The notes under the pieces: model-generated
The model's input: the letters and a program-made list of their open reading frames with translations, nothing else
Told to the model about the DNA's origin: nothing
Databases searched by the model: none
From: Escherichia phage StefiGeyer_Bas88
Strand: one strand, 5' to 3'
DNA length: 64,000 bases
Sequence record: PQ850628.1
Position numbers and translations under genes: made by a program
Part shown: positions 18,856 through 63,466 of the stretch, piece by piece
Numbering within the stretch: the first letter of the stretch is position 1
Layout of the letters: each line of letters starts with the position of its first letter

Positions 18856-19444
18856 AGAGACCTCTCCGTGTCCCTTCAATAATCCACTCCAAATCCTCCA
18901 CTGCCTCTTCTACAGAACGGTCATTAAAGAGGAGGTAGGTTGGTAGGTTTGTTCCTTCAATATAAGAACGGGAGTCCCCTTCAAAGGAGCATCCATCTCG
19001 GAGAATCTGAACTACTCGAACATGGAAACGTTTTTCCAGTTCTTCAACTTCTGCTTTAAACCCACCATCAGAGAATACAATAACATCATTCTGTGTTGGG
19101 ATGCGTTGTTGAATACTGCTAACAGCAAGTTTACCCATGCAGGTATCACCAAACATTGGTTTCAGGTAGTTCTCACTAGTCGCAATCATTAAATCTCGAA
19201 CTGTCTTACCGCCCCATTCAGGACGGCTATATTCTTTCCACTCACGGTCGTTGTATAGCTCCATGAACTCATAAAGAGGAAGTCCTAATGCAGCAGCAGC
19301 CACTCGATACATAGGCTCCTTAAAAGCCTTTACATGCGGTCTAAACTCAGTGTTACCGACGGTCTTCTCTAACCAAGCATTAGCGATTGTATCTTTACCA
19401 CAACCCGGTGGTCCATTCAGAATTACTACTAATGGTTTACTCAT
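18848..19444 (-). CDS. deoxynucleoside monophosphate kinase (T4 gp1-like)
   Basis: P-loop NGPPGCGKDT, the GKDT variant typical of phage dNMP kinases; start overlaps the sigma-factor stop (TAATG). Confidence 0.55.
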   Translation of the reverse strand: MSKPLVVILNGPPGCGKDTIANAWLEKTVGNTEFRPHVKAFKEPMYRVAAAALGLPLYEFMELYNDREWKEYSRPEWGGKTVRDLMIATSENYLKPMFGDTCMGKLAVSSIQQRIPTQNDVIVFSDGGFKAEVEELEKRFHVRVVQILRDGCSFEGDSRSYIEGTNLPTYLLFNDRSVEEAVEDLEWIIEGTRRGLYV

Positions 19445-20094
19445 TATTGAATCATCCCTTGAAGATCTTCTTTATCAAAGTGCTTCTCTACTACAGCTTC
19501 ATACAGATCACGATTCTCTGCATATCGGCGATAGAAGGTTCCGTGTGAAATTCCTAACTGCTGCTGAATATGATCATGAGGTATTCCAAGGAAGAGCATA
19601 GAGAACATGCTTGCCATTTTCTTGGTATCCATAATATCACTTAAGTCTTGGAAGAAGAAAAAGATTCTAGATTCCAAGAATGGGTCTCCAGTAGAGTCAT
19701 GCTTATCCATCGCAATCTCTAAAGGACTTTCCCATGAGTTCATCTCAGGGGGTCTAAACATATCAGCCTCTGGAATAGAGTAGATACGTCGGTCTCCAAC
19801 TGTCTGACGGTTAGAACGAATTGACCAGATGATATTCTTAACACGATAAGTCATGTGTTCAATATCTTTTTCATCAGTGAGCAGAAGTTCTTCTTGCTTT
19901 GCAAACACAAAACGCCAAGCGTTCAGTAACACTTCCTGAGCAACATCCTCTGCTTCGTGATAATCTTTAATGTCATACATAAAATAGCGATGCACAACTT
20001 TCCAATTCTCTCGATAGAATTCATCGAAGGTTGGATAATATTTAATAGGAATGCCATGAATACGATAGCGTGTGGGTGTTGTCTTCTTCTTCAT
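19444..20094 (-). CDS. phage-encoded sigma factor (sigma70-family, ECF-like size)
   Basis: [14 protein letters not shown] resembles sigma region 2.2; C-terminal [20 protein letters not shown] resembles region 4.2 helix-turn-helix. Confidence 0.5.
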
Positions 20095-20600: not shown

Positions 20601-20832
20601 AATGCATCTCTTTGTAAACAGTTTCCGTGTTCTTCTTCCAGTTAGTTAAACTAGTTAGAACTTTCTGAGCTACTTCATCAGCAGCCTTAGCTCTCTCAAT
20701 CTCAATCTCTTGTTGTTTCTTCTCTTGGTCAAGAGTGTTACTATCATTTCGATATTGTTCAAACTTCATTCCACCAAAGAATACAAGAGCTGTAAAGATT
20801 AAGAAGCCGATATTGTTTTGAAGCTTTTCCAT
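20485..20832 (-). CDS. rz: i-spanin (Rz-like)
   Basis: N-terminal TM helix (IGFLIFTALVFFGG) then charged coiled coil; GGAG RBS before ATG at 20832; overlaps o-spanin gene. Confidence 0.55.
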   Translation of the reverse strand: MEKLQNNIGFLIFTALVFFGGMKFEQYRNDSNTLDQEKKQQEIEIERAKAADEVAQKVLTSLTNWKKNTETVYKEMHYEKTKPVFYNVCASDEYVSLFNERQQQAANTLTNKPKS

Positions 20833-20843
20833 TTTAACTCCAA

Positions 20844-20868
20844 CGAAAAAAGCCACCCGAAGGTGGCT
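20844..20868 (-). terminator. rho-independent terminator (- strand)
   Basis: AGCCACC-UUCG-GGUGGCU followed by UUUUUU on the - strand transcript. Confidence 0.55.
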
Positions 20869-20891
20869 AAGCTATTACAAGGAGAGATTCA

Positions 20892-21632
20892 TTAGAAAGG
20901 GCTGTCATCTTCTTCAAAGGTAGATTGCGGCTCTTCATTAATAGTAGGGATACTTGGAGTCGCGTCTTTCTGTTCAGTGTCAGAAGCGCGAGTAACTTCA
21001 CGACCAGCCAGAGGAATGTTTTTAGCATCATTAGCTTGGGTCAGGAGGTTACGTTGGAATGGGAACATAGCTTGATAAGCAGCCAAGTTAGCGTCAGTTT
21101 CAGCATACGGTTCGAAGAAGATCAACTCACTACGAGGAGCACCTACAGCATCACGATACTTAGTTGGGATGGGGGTGATGCTCTTGATAGAGTTTTTCTT
21201 CTCACCAGCTTTGTTGGTGTAAGAATTAACCAGAATGTTGACAGGCTGACCAAGCAGCATATCTTTGAACCAACCCAAATCACCTTTCAGTGCTTGAACA
21301 CTTGGGTCGATCATTTTAATTAGGTTCAGAATACCAGAGTTCTTAGCTCGTGGGTTTACATCGAAGGATTTAAACTGACAAGCAGGACGTGGGTCCAATG
21401 CCTTACCATCATTATCTGTACCAGTCGCGTCAACACCAATCAGTTCAAATGCCAAGTCCATACGGAAAGCGGGGTTCTTAGGAGTAACTGCTTTGGTCTT
21501 AGGGTCAATCCAAGGGTCACGATTGTGAACACCTAAACCTACTACACGAACAATGCGTGCTTCGTACTCGCCATCAGGGATTACATCGTAGTTGGATTTA
21601 CGGGATACAGACAGTTCAGGGATCATAGACAT
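20892..21632 (-). CDS. single-stranded DNA-binding protein candidate with acidic SSB-like C-terminal tail
   Basis: 246 aa ending FEEDDSPF, resembling the DDDIPF tail of SSBs; AAGGAA RBS. Confidence 0.35.
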   Translation of the reverse strand: MSMIPELSVSRKSNYDVIPDGEYEARIVRVVGLGVHNRDPWIDPKTKAVTPKNPAFRMDLAFELIGVDATGTDNDGKALDPRPACQFKSFDVNPRAKNSGILNLIKMIDPSVQALKGDLGWFKDMLLGQPVNILVNSYTNKAGEKKNSIKSITPIPTKYRDAVGAPRSELIFFEPYAETDANLAAYQAMFPFQRNLLTQANDAKNIPLAGREVTRASDTEQKDATPSIPTINEEPQSTFEEDDSPF

Positions 21633-21690
21633 ATTAATATTTCCTTATATAAATTTAAGATTGTTGCTCTCTTTGAGCGGTTGGTATACT

Positions 21691-21701
21691 ATATACATTA
21701 C
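21691..21701 (-). promoter_or_regulatory. phage promoter-like motif (GTAATGTATAT) facing SSB-like gene
   Basis: Motif on - strand about 60 nt upstream of the 21632 start. Confidence 0.3.
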
Positions 21702-21761
21702 ACCTATACAGATAAGGTTCTATTATACTATAACCTTTTTGGTAGTAGATAACAGTAAGTA

Positions 21762-21774
21762 GTAATGTATATAT
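21762..21774 (+). promoter_or_regulatory. inverted copy of promoter-like motif
   Basis: GTAATGTATATAT on + strand, forming an inverted pair with 21691..21701. Confidence 0.25.
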
Positions 21775-21974
21775 GGTATAGCTAGTAAAGCTATTGCAGG
21801 CTTGTATATTGGGCAATCATCGTAACCCTTGCAAGTACCGAAGGGCAGGAGACACCTGCGAGATAAAAATAGAGAATTAAGGAAACCCTTGATTTAGGTT
21901 GAGGACTCCTAGGACTTTGATTCTCTATTAAAATCAAAAGAAAACTAATTAACTTAACTTAAAAACAATAACTT

Positions 21975-22595
21975 CTACCATTCTAAAAGACCTTTAAAGC
22001 TAGTTTGTTCTACTGTTCTCTGAAAAGGTGAGTTAGATTCAGCTTGTTTACTTAACATCTCTTGTACTTCGCTGGTAATTGGATAATCTTTTTGTAATAA
22101 AGAAGCTACCCACTCTTTCCTACTTTCTAGTTCTTTTCTAATCTCTTGCAGAGATACAGCTCTATAATCAATTTGTTCCATAGAAGTACAAAAGTATCTC
22201 CAATCTTTAATAGTAGAATTATGAGTATGAGCATAGATATTATACTTCCCTCTCATTTCATCAGAGTGAATAGGAATATGAGTTACCCAAAACTCTTTGT
22301 ACTTATAATCACCACTGATGTGTCTAAAGACTTTCATCATATCAGGGAGAAGTTCTAATCTGTCATGGTTTCCTAGGACAAGATGTTTCTCTCCTTTTAC
22401 TTCAGCGATAATATCAAGTGCATATTTCTCAAACACCCAATCACCTGTAAAGAAAGTTTTATCACGTTTAGTAACATGGTCAAAAGCTGCTAGGATAGCT
22501 TTGTCATGTTCTTCAATACTACTAAACTTCTTCCTAAAGTTACAGATGTTACGATGGCCTAGGTGACCATCACCTGCAAAATAAACTTCAGCCAT
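21975..22595 (-). CDS. calcineurin-like metallophosphoesterase
   Basis: GDGHLGH ... FTGDW ... LVLGNHD metal-binding motifs. Confidence 0.65.
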   Translation of the reverse strand: MAEVYFAGDGHLGHRNICNFRKKFSSIEEHDKAILAAFDHVTKRDKTFFTGDWVFEKYALDIIAEVKGEKHLVLGNHDRLELLPDMMKVFRHISGDYKYKEFWVTHIPIHSDEMRGKYNIYAHTHNSTIKDWRYFCTSMEQIDYRAVSLQEIRKELESRKEWVASLLQKDYPITSEVQEMLSKQAESNSPFQRTVEQTSFKGLLEW

Positions 22596-22755
22596 TCTCG
22601 TACGTGTCCTCGTAATATGAGTAGTTGAAGGATTCGGCTTTCGTTTCAGCCTCCTCCCTATCGTCTGTTTCCAGAATCACTCTCCAGCCAAAACCTTCAG
22701 GATATTCAGCCCCTTCGTCTAGCCAGACTTTAAACCTTTTAGATAGTACAGCCAT
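22588..22755 (-). CDS. small acidic hypothetical protein
   Basis: ORF with internal ATG start; no motif. Confidence 0.25.
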   Translation of the reverse strand: MAVLSKRFKVWLDEGAEYPEGFGWRVILETDDREEAETKAESFNYSYYEDTYENG

Positions 22756-22942
22756 CGCAGATATAATCTCCGCTGAGAGACTCTTGTAAGAGTCGGGATT
22801 GTTCATCTGACACCAGCTTATCAACCTCTTCTTTCAGAGCCATAAGGTCAACAAAAGTCAGTAGTTCATGCCGATCAGCAATCACTTGGTATTTGTAATC
22901 ACTGATATGTCCTACAGTTTGTGTGACGTAAATATTAGACAT
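22739..22942 (-). CDS. hypothetical protein
   Basis: 67-aa ORF in tight gene array. Confidence 0.3.
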   Translation of the reverse strand: MSNIYVTQTVGHISDYKYQVIADRHELLTFVDLMALKEEVDKLVSDEQSRLLQESLSGDYICDGCTI

Positions 22943-23166
22943 TACAACAACTCACTCTGTTTATTATTGATGATAGTCATCGCTGTGACTGGATTATTTG
23001 TTCCGAGATACTCTAGAACAGGTGGACTACTAGCTGGTTTACCAGCCTCTACATAATTTTTAACCTTGCCACCAAGAATCGCTAGAGAAGCCTGAGCTTC
23101 GGATTCATCAGTATGAACTCGGTCAACTGTCTTCTTTCCAATCTTATAAGTGTGAACGTAAATCAT
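22942..23166 (-). CDS. hypothetical protein
   Basis: 74-aa ORF. Confidence 0.3.
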   Translation of the reverse strand: MIYVHTYKIGKKTVDRVHTDESEAQASLAILGGKVKNYVEAGKPASSPPVLEYLGTNNPVTAMTIINNKQSELL

Positions 23167-23761: not shown

Positions 23762-23786
23762 AAGAAAAGCCACCCGAAGGTAGCTT
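23762..23786 (-). terminator. rho-independent terminator (- strand)
   Basis: AGCUACC-UUCG-GGUGGCU hairpin followed by UUUUCUUG. Confidence 0.45.
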
Positions 23787-24409: not shown

Positions 24410-24721
24410 CTACTTCTCCACCACAAAGAGGTTAACTTCAATGAAAGTTTCGTATTGTGTTGACTCCTGCTTACGGGTGTAGTAGAAATGACGACCTTCT
24501 AATGCACCTCCGTACTGAGTGGCACATCTTTTAACCATCTCTTTTATCACATCTACAACTGATACGCCTTTCCACGGACGTAACCCATGAGTAGGAATTT
24601 CTGCTGTGCAGGTTACTTGTGTGTAACCCACATCTTGGAGAGGTATATCAAGAATCAGTTTTGCCCAAGCATCAAAATTGAGCTTGGGATTATATTTAAC
24701 TTCAGTTTTGATATCAATCAT
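24410..24721 (-). CDS. hypothetical protein
   Basis: 103-aa ORF directly downstream of the polymerase gene. Confidence 0.35.
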   Translation of the reverse strand: MIDIKTEVKYNPKLNFDAWAKLILDIPLQDVGYTQVTCTAEIPTHGLRPWKGVSVVDVIKEMVKRCATQYGGALEGRHFYYTRKQESTQYETFIEVNLFVVEK

Positions 24722-26568
24722 TAGTGAGTATGATTCCAGTTAAGCCCAATCTTACAATCTGATGCAAGAGGGCATTCCATCTTGAGGTATTCACCCGCTT
24801 TACGAACACACTCCTCAGTGAGAGTGCGAAGTTTGTTAACATCGTCACGATGTACAGTGAACTGACCTTCATCATGCATGTCGATAACCTTCGCACAACG
24901 AACACCATCACGCTCAATCCATTTATTGAGGAATAGCATTGCATACTTCATAACAATCGCCCCAGCGCTCTGTAAGAGCGTATTTAAGGCTTTGTGTGTC
25001 ATGACCTTTCCTGTACCGTCACGTCTCATTGTAATACGACGACCGTCAACACCGTAGATGTATCCACTTTGTGCTTTCTCTGTCATACGTTCAATAAGGA
25101 TTGCAATACAAGGGTTCTCTGCTAAGAATCTAGCTCTCATTATAGAACCTTCATCAGCCCCACCACCAACAATACTACCTAGCTTAGCATCACCAGCTCC
25201 GTAGTTGAATGCGTAGATAAACGTCTTAGCATTATCACGGGTAGGCAAGCCAGCAAGTTTCTGGTTATGGGAGTGAATATCACCCTGTAAGAGAATATCT
25301 CTGTACAATACGGCAGATGCTAAACCGCGTTCAGCTTCTCGTTTCTTAGCTGGGTTATTCTCTTGTTCTGCCTCTGCCAACATCTCACGACACTCTTTAA
25401 TAAGGTAGTGAGCCAGCATACGCAGTTCTAACCCTGAACCATCATAACCAAGAAATACTTCATGACCAGAAGGTATGTAATATTTCAGAGCACCTATCGG
25501 TTTGTCTTTCTTGCCCGGTTTTCCCACTTCGTAGATAGTGTTTGTACCTTTTCGTACGTAACACCCATCAGGGATATGGTTGGTAATGATGATAGGATTG
25601 TGATTACTATCACTTGAGGTACAGTCAGACTGAAATAGACTGCGGCACTCGTGACCAAACAAACCGCGAGAAGGAATATTAACAACAATACGGTGTTTAA
25701 AACGAAATGTCGGAGTAGCGCAGCTATTAGCTTCGGCGGACAACTTACCATCTTCTCGTTCCTTGTCTATAAGACCATTAATCAAGCCAAGCCTATGAGC
25801 CGCTACAACACGTCTCTTAAGCAAACTTCCCACACCCCCTAGCTCACCCCCAAGACCTTCTTCAAGCGTCTCCTCGAGGTTTGTAGGAGCTGTAGGCCAT
25901 TTGTTTGACATGGCTAGAGCTTTCTTAATTTCATCAAAGGTTACAGGCTTCTTCCTGTTCGGATTCAAACCTAAACCGCTAACGTACGCTTTCATGTAAT
26001 TGACAGTGTGATAACGGAAGTGTTTATCCAAGAACCGACGAATGTCAGCGTCAATCATCTCAGCTGTCTGTTTTTCTTTAGCGTTTCCTCGCATCCAAGC
26101 AGAATACCAAGCAGCATATGTGCCATACTTCTTCATCGCTTTACGGATTTCGTAAGTATTCCAAGGTTTCTTGGATGTGTTCCACTCTGGAGGAATAAAG
26201 CCTTCGTCCATCAAGGCTTCTTTGATACGTGCATCTTTCGATGGGTCGAAGTCTACATACTCAACGCAAGTAAACGCCCCACCGATATCTTCTCTTTTAA
26301 GACCAACTCTGTCACAATAGAGCTGAGGCCACTTCTGTAAAGCACCTGACTTCTTAAAAGGTTTCGAATAAGTTGAACCATCCACCCGCATTTTGGGGAG
26401 GAGAGGAATCAGTTCTTTATCAATATTGACAATAATCTCTTTGAGAAGGTGAACAAACCACCGAGCGTTTCTTCTGTGGAAGTTGACGCCATGCTTCGCC
26501 TGCTTTGAGATTATATCAGCGACTGTCATCTCCGTTATGAAAGGTAACTTATCAGGGTTATCCATCAC
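24721..26568 (-). CDS. family-A DNA polymerase, polymerase domain only
   Basis: Motif B RDNAKTFIYAFNYGAGDAKLG and motif C MHDEGQF; no 3'-5' exonuclease motifs in this ORF. Confidence 0.8.
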   Translation of the reverse strand: MMDNPDKLPFITEMTVADIISKQAKHGVNFHRRNARWFVHLLKEIIVNIDKELIPLLPKMRVDGSTYSKPFKKSGALQKWPQLYCDRVGLKREDIGGAFTCVEYVDFDPSKDARIKEALMDEGFIPPEWNTSKKPWNTYEIRKAMKKYGTYAAWYSAWMRGNAKEKQTAEMIDADIRRFLDKHFRYHTVNYMKAYVSGLGLNPNRKKPVTFDEIKKALAMSNKWPTAPTNLEETLEEGLGGELGGVGSLLKRRVVAAHRLGLINGLIDKEREDGKLSAEANSCATPTFRFKHRIVVNIPSRGLFGHECRSLFQSDCTSSDSNHNPIIITNHIPDGCYVRKGTNTIYEVGKPGKKDKPIGALKYYIPSGHEVFLGYDGSGLELRMLAHYLIKECREMLAEAEQENNPAKKREAERGLASAVLYRDILLQGDIHSHNQKLAGLPTRDNAKTFIYAFNYGAGDAKLGSIVGGGADEGSIMRARFLAENPCIAILIERMTEKAQSGYIYGVDGRRITMRRDGTGKVMTHKALNTLLQSAGAIVMKYAMLFLNKWIERDGVRCAKVIDMHDEGQFTVHRDDVNKLRTLTEECVRKAGEYLKMECPLASDCKIGLNWNHTH

Positions 26569-62755: not shown

Positions 62756-63401
62756 TATGACAGGAACTACTACACTGAATGCAATCTATGAGAACATGGG
62801 ATGTAAAGGCGAGGTTGTTTACAATGGTAATCTCCGTCCTTTATCAGAGGACATTCTCTATCTGAATCGTGTTCATGAAACTACTGGAGGTAAATCCCAA
62901 GTTGAGATGGTAAAACAACTGGCTCATGGTTCTGTGTATGGTTATGCTCCTTCAACCCGTGAATTGTGGGAAGGTTTGATTCCTAGTACAGAAGCGAAAG
63001 ATGTGAAAGATTATTTCACTGTAGCAAAAGAAGTTAAACGCAAGTGTCCATCCAATCTAGAAGTTGTTCCGTATGTAGCTGACAAACATGCACACCTACC
63101 GGATTATGCCCGTGAGATGATTGAGATGATAGAAGAAGCCGAGTATGAAGCTCTGAATAATTATTTAAATTCAAAAGATCAATGGTCACGTAATGTAGTA
63201 ATTGATGAAGAAGGTAATGAAGTAGTTACGTGGGTACATGCTAGTGAACAAGCTCTGGACCCCGAGCTTGAAGAATACAAAAAATTTTTGGCGTCCTCTT
63301 CTTTTGATGTAGAGAATGACAAATCTGTTCCAGTGACTTGGGAAGGTGAAACTGTAGCTCTCCAGACTTTGTTCAACCTGCACGTAGGTAATGTAGATTA
63401 A
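62745..63401 (+). CDS. hypothetical protein
   Basis: 218-aa ORF with RBS; followed by a terminator. Confidence 0.4.
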   Translation: MMNNMTGTTTLNAIYENMGCKGEVVYNGNLRPLSEDILYLNRVHETTGGKSQVEMVKQLAHGSVYGYAPSTRELWEGLIPSTEAKDVKDYFTVAKEVKRKCPSNLEVVPYVADKHAHLPDYAREMIEMIEEAEYEALNNYLNSKDQWSRNVVIDEEGNEVVTWVHASEQALDPELEEYKKFLASSSFDVENDKSVPVTWEGETVALQTLFNLHVGNVD

Positions 63402-63410
63402 TAAAAGGTG

Positions 63411-63438
63411 TTGCCTCCTCTAGTGGGAGGCTTTTTGT
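63411..63438 (+). terminator. rho-independent terminator (+ strand)
   Basis: GCCTCC-TCTAGTG-GGAGGC followed by TTTTTGTT. Confidence 0.5.
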
Positions 63439-63466
63439 TATAACGATAATGTAGAAGGAGTATAAG

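Follow-up and report, generated by a model that had tools for sequence, protein, structure and literature searches.

Divergent gp36-type promoter elements in a phiEco32-like phage: a known middle promoter and a candidate seventh promoter facing a conserved non-coding region

The inverted repeat described in this article is likely to represent the -10-type elements of two divergent promoters recognized by the phage sigma factor gp36, namely the known middle promoter P40 and a candidate promoter on the opposite strand, here termed P_R, which probably yields a structured RNA. It was found in Escherichia phage StefiGeyer_Bas88 (sequence record PQ850628.1), of which a stretch of 64,000 nucleotides, referred to as the window, was analysed. 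The source of the window is an E. coli podophage of the phiEco32-like type within the Gordonclarkvirinae; over 20800-22700 it shares 99% identity with TH43, and about 98 related phage records match. The repeat sits in a 342-nt gap (21633-21974) flanked by two - strand middle genes, a homologue of phi32_40 and a metallophosphoesterase gene. The sigma factor itself is encoded nearby: the product of the ORF at 19444-20094 (-) shares 81% identity with phiEco32 gp36 (phi32_36) and keeps all the residues reported to contact promoter DNA (E79, H80, Y83, R84, W90, S91, S94, N95, Y186 and R187).

The gp36 promoters of phiEco32 share a single element with the consensus tAATGTATAtA (PMC4281155, PMC8948821, PMC12276001), and transcription starts 6-8 nt downstream of this element (PMC8948821). 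In the open complex formed at P68, solved by cryo-EM, AATGTA occupies positions -14 to -9 and the C-terminal domain of gp36 also contacts -37G and -34A, positions whose mutation abolishes P68 activity (PMC12276001). The start positions given below were predicted from this placement of AATGTA at -14 to -9 (PMC12276001) together with the distance of 6-8 nt to the start (PMC8948821). A published table covering six phiEco32-like phages lists six gp36 promoters for phiEco32, the late promoters P6, P13 and P26 and the middle promoters P40, P58 and P68. P_R is missing from this six-promoter table and from the SU10 promoter table, which are later summaries of phiEco32 promoter mapping; one published computational promoter search was confined to the gene-sense strand of intergenic regions and by design would miss P_R. 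Elsewhere in the window, two copies of TAATGTAGA occur 58 nt apart on the + strand (63389-63397 and 63447-63455). The second matches P6 (P4 in SU10), one of the listed late promoters, and the first lies where the preceding gene ends, immediately 5' of a + strand hairpin and T-run at ~63414-63436.

The arms of the repeat are TATATACATTAC (21690-21701) and its perfect reverse complement GTAATGTATATA (21762-21773), separated by a spacer of 60 nt (21702-21761). The first-pass annotation had correctly described a reverse-complement pair around a 60-bp spacer, with a left start (21691) and an end (21774) that were each one base too high. These arms are the single perfect 12-nt inverted repeat in the window with a spacer of at most 100 nt; at least one repeat of this kind is found in 37% of windows simulated with a first-order Markov model, and the bare inverted repeat is statistically unremarkable. 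The motif itself is beyond chance. The exact 9-mer TAATGTATA, carried by both arms, is present four times in the window versus 0.67 expected, a count reached by none of 100 shuffles, and the remaining two copies are P26 (12302, +) and P58 (27856, -). The composite pattern TGGTAGTAGAT-N12-WAATGTATA, found twice in the window versus 0.00 expected, is confined to P_R and P68. When the P_R region was compared with the rest of the window in a self-similarity search, nothing recurred except the promoter blocks.

The left arm (21690..21701) reads GTAATGTATATA on the - strand, where its core TAATGTATA at 21700-21692 is an exact match to the gp36 consensus. It corresponds to the promoter that the SU10 table places "between CDS37 and CDS38" (aagcgtaatgtatactatacataaccgctcaaagagagcaa), that is, phiEco32 P40 (P37 in SU10, P35 in ECBP2/KBNP1711), with which it shares the position, the strand, TAATGTATA and a conserved leader; the sequences differ just downstream of the element (TATATAGTAT here, TATACTATAC in phiEco32) and in nothing substantive. 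In two reports, P40 of phiEco32 is described as dependent on the gp36 holoenzyme and as starting 6-8 nt downstream of the element (PMC4281155, PMC8948821). The earlier proposal that the left copy serves the adjacent - strand gene is in agreement with the listing of P40/P37 upstream of the phi32_40 homologue. The predicted start, A21685, opens a 53-nt leader (21633..21685, -) that contains the hairpin GCUCAAAGAGAGC (21678-21666) and a ribosome-binding site and shows 91% conservation among relatives. In the -35 region of P40, -34A is present and -37G is not, and this region is unconserved (0.51 identity).

The gene served by P40 (20892..21632, -) encodes a protein of 246 aa with an acidic C-terminal tail (...EEDDSPF), and, being followed by a UUCG-loop terminator (20868-20851, -), makes up a short and separate transcription unit. 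Two such terminators, near-identical and GC-rich, divide the middle-gene cluster (20851-20868 and 23767-23786, -; AGCCACCTTCGGGTGGCT and AAGCTACCTTCGGGTGGCTT). The protein had been called SSB-like; searches with it gave no Pfam match, a PHROG of unknown function and no PDB sequence match, and its single-sequence AlphaFold2 model is poor (pLDDT 38.9), so that the label draws solely on the acidic tail and on two GenBank records in which homologues are named ssDNA-binding protein. HNH endonuclease genes are located beside the phi32_40 homologue in other phages, downstream in SU10 (L004 1407-1820) and upstream in GAP52 (L020 788-1153); in this window there is no such insertion next to the gene.

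The right arm (GTAATGTATATA, 21762..21773, +) is likewise an exact match to the consensus, with a predicted start at A21778. It is preceded by an internal spacer of constant length and variable sequence (21751..21761, +) and by the -35-type element TGGTAGTAGAT (21740..21750, +), in which G21741 corresponds to -37 and A21744 to -34. The same architecture is found at the P68 site of the window, TGGTAGTAGAT-N12-AAATGTATA at 32920-32889 (-), the features in common being the upstream block TGGTAGTAGAT, the 12-nt spacing, -37G, -34A and AATGTATA; at position -15 P_R has the consensus T and P68 an A. Among Kuravirus genomes in IMG/VR the composite promoter pattern occurs exactly twice per genome, further IMG/VR matches to it being in unrelated contigs. 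A sigma-70 promoter scan of the gap returned nothing convincing.

P68 precedes a co-oriented protein-coding gene, whereas P_R opposes the middle-gene flow and points into an ORF-less region: ahead of it no ORF is found for ~155-185 nt, beyond which lies the phosphoesterase gene, convergent and entered from its 3' end. Being upstream of, and co-oriented with, a middle or late gene is a property of P40 and not of P_R; published promoter searches relied on it as a criterion, yet it is irrelevant to the mechanism of initiation. The description of the right copy as facing the 3' end of a metallophosphatase gene on the opposite strand is accurate, this gene (21975-22595, -, 206 aa) lying beyond the ORF-less stretch. 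Residues 1-173 of its product match the phosphoesterase family phrog_547; the match of residues 176-206 is to phrog_14248, encoded in SU10 and phiEco32 by a small ORF of its own. Judging from these matches, phrog_547 and phrog_14248 appear to be fused, with the small gene phi32_41 absent, in this lineage and also in EK010, ECBP2, XT32 and Paul.

The conservation of the region was examined in 15 annotated relatives and, including IMG/VR and metagenome loci, in 32 sequences in total. The P40 element is kept in all relatives examined and the P_R -10 element is present in 31 of the 32 related sequences. Within P_R, mean pairwise identity is 0.977 for the -35 block and 0.971 for the -10 block, and 0.44 for the internal spacer, whose length is kept (11-12 nt); the inter-promoter DNA (21702..21739) has a mean pairwise identity of 0.51 and is variable in length. 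The two 9-mers lie 52 nt apart in SR02 and MN05, 62-63 nt apart in most phages and 181-183 nt apart in phages of the ES17 type. Conserved blocks separated by drifting spacers indicate two independently constrained promoters, bipartite or with a single element, and not a palindrome or operator that depends on spacing. The view of the arms as promoter-like motifs is supported by the match of both to the published gp36 consensus and, for the right arm, by the full P68-type architecture and its bipartite conservation.

The ES17-type insertion of ~120 nt between P40 and P_R was seen in loci L013, L014, L017, L025-L029 and L036, and in ES17 and EcM-vB1 it is annotated as a 47-aa ORF. The single exception to the conservation of the P_R -10 element is a metagenome contig (ERZ1034915 NODE-75; locus L025, 8925-8935), in which P_R reads TAATATATA with a G to A change at -11, the remainder of the region being intact. 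The -11 G altered in this contig is the base contacted by gp36 E79/H80, and P_R may be dispensable because a critical base is changed there.

On these sequence features, P_R is best explained as a further gp36-type promoter of the P68 class, directed against the middle-gene flow and new relative to the published lists. It is unlikely that only P40 works and that the right copy with TGGTAGTAGAT is a DNA site at which the gp36/gp79-polymerase docks, is held in reserve or activates P40, with no meaningful transcript being made. The P_R block is located at about -55 to -90 of the P40 start, distances at which upstream activating sites usually sit, and such a role would suit a P40 whose -35 region is not conserved as well as the naming of P40 alone for this gap in published lists. 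However, the ES17-type insertion pushes the right copy out to about -175 or further and both copies are still kept; the right copy has the full geometry and orientation of P68, which are required for initiation and not for mere binding, and a covarying hairpin (SL1) begins exactly at the predicted +1 of P_R.

The DNA facing P_R is conserved without being coding. From 21778 to the phosphoesterase stop codon no ORF is conserved among relatives, since every frame is broken by indels (1, 2 and 1 nt) and by the replacement of cassettes. The small ORFs 21655-21816 (-), 21791-21937 (-) and g037c (annotated in phage 4E8) were considered and rejected, their frames being broken by indels or insertions among relatives.

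SL1 (AUAGCU-AGUAA-AGCUAU, 21778..21794, +) occupies positions +1 to +17 of the predicted P_R transcript. It occurs in six variants in which two pairs are changed on both sides (U-A/G-C and C-G/U-A/A-U), while a third pair alternates between G-C and G-U, the latter being a valid pairing on the + strand only. A variable cassette follows (21799..21836, +), which is of type A and 38 nt long here and is replaced in other phages by an unrelated type B, ~27 nt longer and with hairpins of its own, including one compensatory pair (UA/CG). Both types have identical flanks, TTGCA and ACCG(G)AAGGGCAGG, and their distribution is at odds with that of the rest of the gap, suggesting recombinational swapping. 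Besides the window, the cassettes were noted at the equivalent position in L008, L012, L013, L017 and L025-L029.

Beyond the cassette lies a nearly invariant core of 93 nt (21837..21929, +) consisting of the hairpin SL3, an A-rich linker and the hairpin SL4. Its mean identity of 0.955 exceeds the 82-94% that most relatives show across the flanking 1.9 kb; scans for the core yielded only 5 loci in IMG/VR and 6 in metagenomes. SL3 (GCAGG-AGACA-CCUGC, 21845-21859, +) varies among relatives in its loop only (GCAGG-AGMCA-CCUGC). SL4 is a long branched hairpin (21868-21929, +) with an outer stem of 15 bp on the + strand, G-U pairs included, and of 10 bp on the - strand. All core indels fall within predicted loops or bulges. 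The tail that extends to the phosphoesterase stop codon (21930..21974, +) is AT-rich, G-poor (C/G = 2.8 in 21931-22010) and poorly conserved, and in relatives it contains small ORFs.

Folding of the region modestly favors the strand that P_R would transcribe. Consensus folds reach -39.05 / -48.47 kcal/mol on the + strand versus -29.22 / -40.5 on the - strand, and include 2-3 compensatory pairs on the + strand versus none on the - strand, where SL1 is not predicted. With the structure held fixed, 53 cells pair on the + strand only versus 2 on the - strand only, an excess that is due mostly to two invariant G-U pairs selected by the energy model. As 26 of the 33 pairs never vary, they are uninformative on RNA structure; apart from the two pairs of SL1 and the single pair in cassette type B, the remaining 27 are invariant or changed on one side only. 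Folded as a single sequence, the region is not significantly more stable than shuffled sequences (z = -1.59).

Searches for known RNA classes and terminators gave the following results. A permissive search of 21000-23000 against Rfam 15 produced best scores of 17-22 bits, with thresholds of 37-66 bits and E-values >3, and none of 5,426 complete E. coli genomes contained a match to the P_R region. A role as a CsrA sponge was rejected (4 GGA motifs versus 2.7 expected, P = 0.27). The literature search found no report of a non-coding or antisense RNA of phiEco32 or Kuravirus phages. RNA-seq reads of E. coli NC101 sampled 10 min after infection with the Kuraviruses RSB02/RSB04 are deposited under BioProject PRJNA1225266 and were aligned to the host alone (PMC12803456). 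No intrinsic terminator was detected on the + strand downstream of P_R, where SL4 is followed by 2-3 U. As an intrinsic terminator SL4 scored negative on both strands; on the - strand it is followed by U5, and its stem is an AU-rich one of 10 bp carrying a branch of ~40 nt.

According to the proposed explanation, host RNA polymerase with gp36 would read both of these back-to-back promoters. Transcription from P40 would begin at ~21685 on the - strand and give the phi32_40 homologue in a short unit that ends at its own terminator, while that from P_R would begin around A21778 on the + strand and run into the ORF-less conserved region. The product of P_R would be a structured RNA of ~155 nt (~185 nt in type B phages) with the 5' hairpin SL1 first. 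The 3' end would be set by a Rho stop in the G-poor tail and trimming back to SL4, giving ~155 nt; alternatively, the transcript may read through into the 3' end of the phosphoesterase operon, to which it would then be antisense. The suggestion made from the first inspection, that the right copy could drive an antisense or non-coding transcript, is favored by the P68 geometry, the conservation and the ORF-less DNA ahead, which make P_R a plausible candidate for activity in vivo. Whether such an RNA amounts to an undescribed structured ncRNA specific to Gordonclarkvirinae, ~155-185 nt in length, made after gp36 appears and endowed with a function of its own, is a more tentative matter: this is conceivable, and rather less than an even prospect.

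The functional product of P_R would be this RNA and not the act of transcription. It is improbable that P_R is a real promoter whose RNA is functionless and whose transcription opens or primes a replication origin located to its right, in the manner of the phage-specific promoters at the T7 primary origin or of the activation of the lambda origin by pR transcription. The layout of a phage promoter followed by a nearly invariant 93-nt block and an AT-rich tail would fit an origin, as would a site amid replication-type middle genes, the DNA polymerase gene being at 24721-26568, and an invariance beyond the needs of base-pairing, which suggests a constraint from DNA or protein recognition. Against this, the AT-rich tail is poorly conserved and has small ORFs in relatives, GC skew tracks the direction of transcription only, and the covariation in SL1 and the G-U pairs point to selection on RNA.

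The structured RNA remains the preferred product when the - strand is considered as well. There the block could act mainly as a 3' UTR, terminator or RNase site of the phosphoesterase operon, with antisense or convergent polymerases from P_R insulating gene 40, a scheme that is quite improbable. SL4, with its 10-bp stem and inner stem, is directly followed by UUUUUAUCU on that strand, a promoter and a terminator of its own serve gene 40, and an untranslated P_R RNA would fully complement read-through transcripts. Yet the terminator scan is negative here, the clear terminators of the phage being GC-rich UUCG hairpins, and a terminator accounts neither for near invariance over 93 nt nor for cassette swaps; moreover, the - strand has a weaker consensus fold and weaker compensatory changes. 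On a smaller scale, SL4 with its adjoining UUUUU on the - strand may be a weak terminator of the upstream phosphoesterase operon.

A structural palindrome, be it a DNA or RNA cruciform or hairpin or the half-sites of a dimeric DNA-binding protein, as the first-pass annotation had offered for the pair, is highly improbable: although the 12 complementary bases are perfect and the arms do pair in the single-strand DNA fold of 21686-21777 (-9.7 kcal/mol), this fold is ordinary (z = -1.35; 20 of 200 shuffles equally good), repeats of this length are common in simulated windows, the distance between the arms falls into three size classes among relatives with the DNA between them only 51% conserved, and complementarity stops at the promoter consensus, the phiEco32 arms sharing only GTAATGTATA.

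The reading of the arms as divergent gp36 promoters can be placed among known systems. A general class of divergent promoter pairs exists in bacteria and phages, one of the two promoters giving rise to a small RNA that is non-coding or antisense. P40 and P_R resemble it in having starts ~93 bp apart on opposite strands, with one coding and one putative non-coding transcript, and differ from it in that both promoters rely on a phage-encoded sigma factor. The Grimontviridae phages 7-11 and GAP52 also have a phage-sigma promoter directly upstream of the phi32_40 homologue (P48), which has another consensus (GTAAtg-N16-aCTA) in a gap of ~50-100 nt, with no divergent copy and no conserved non-coding block. 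In Proteus and Aeromonas phages a phage-sigma promoter of different consensus is kept 5' of the phi32_40 homologue, again in a gap of ~50-100 nt. The conserved block is absent from the phi32_40 homologue loci of 7-11, GAP52, the Proteus and Aeromonas phages and PKM.Lu.22.1, and for this reason these distant relatives contribute no covariation data. As the Grimontviridae/Lahexavirus relatives are without the divergent copy or the conserved block, the arrangement is specific to Gordonclarkvirinae.

phiEco32 serves as a model for how a phage-encoded sigma factor, gp36, acting with its partner gp79, takes over transcription, and the promoter set of this phage has been taken as six. If active, P_R would be a seventh site, the one with the strongest architecture, kept in nearly every relative examined, and would add a non-coding output to this circuit. 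Promoter searches limited to the gene-sense strand overlook sites such as P_R. Its RNA, if made, might control neighboring transcripts, bind a phage or host protein, or prime replication. An active P_R would offer a candidate, readily open to testing, for a small RNA or an origin-activating transcript in a group of phages much used as therapy isolates.
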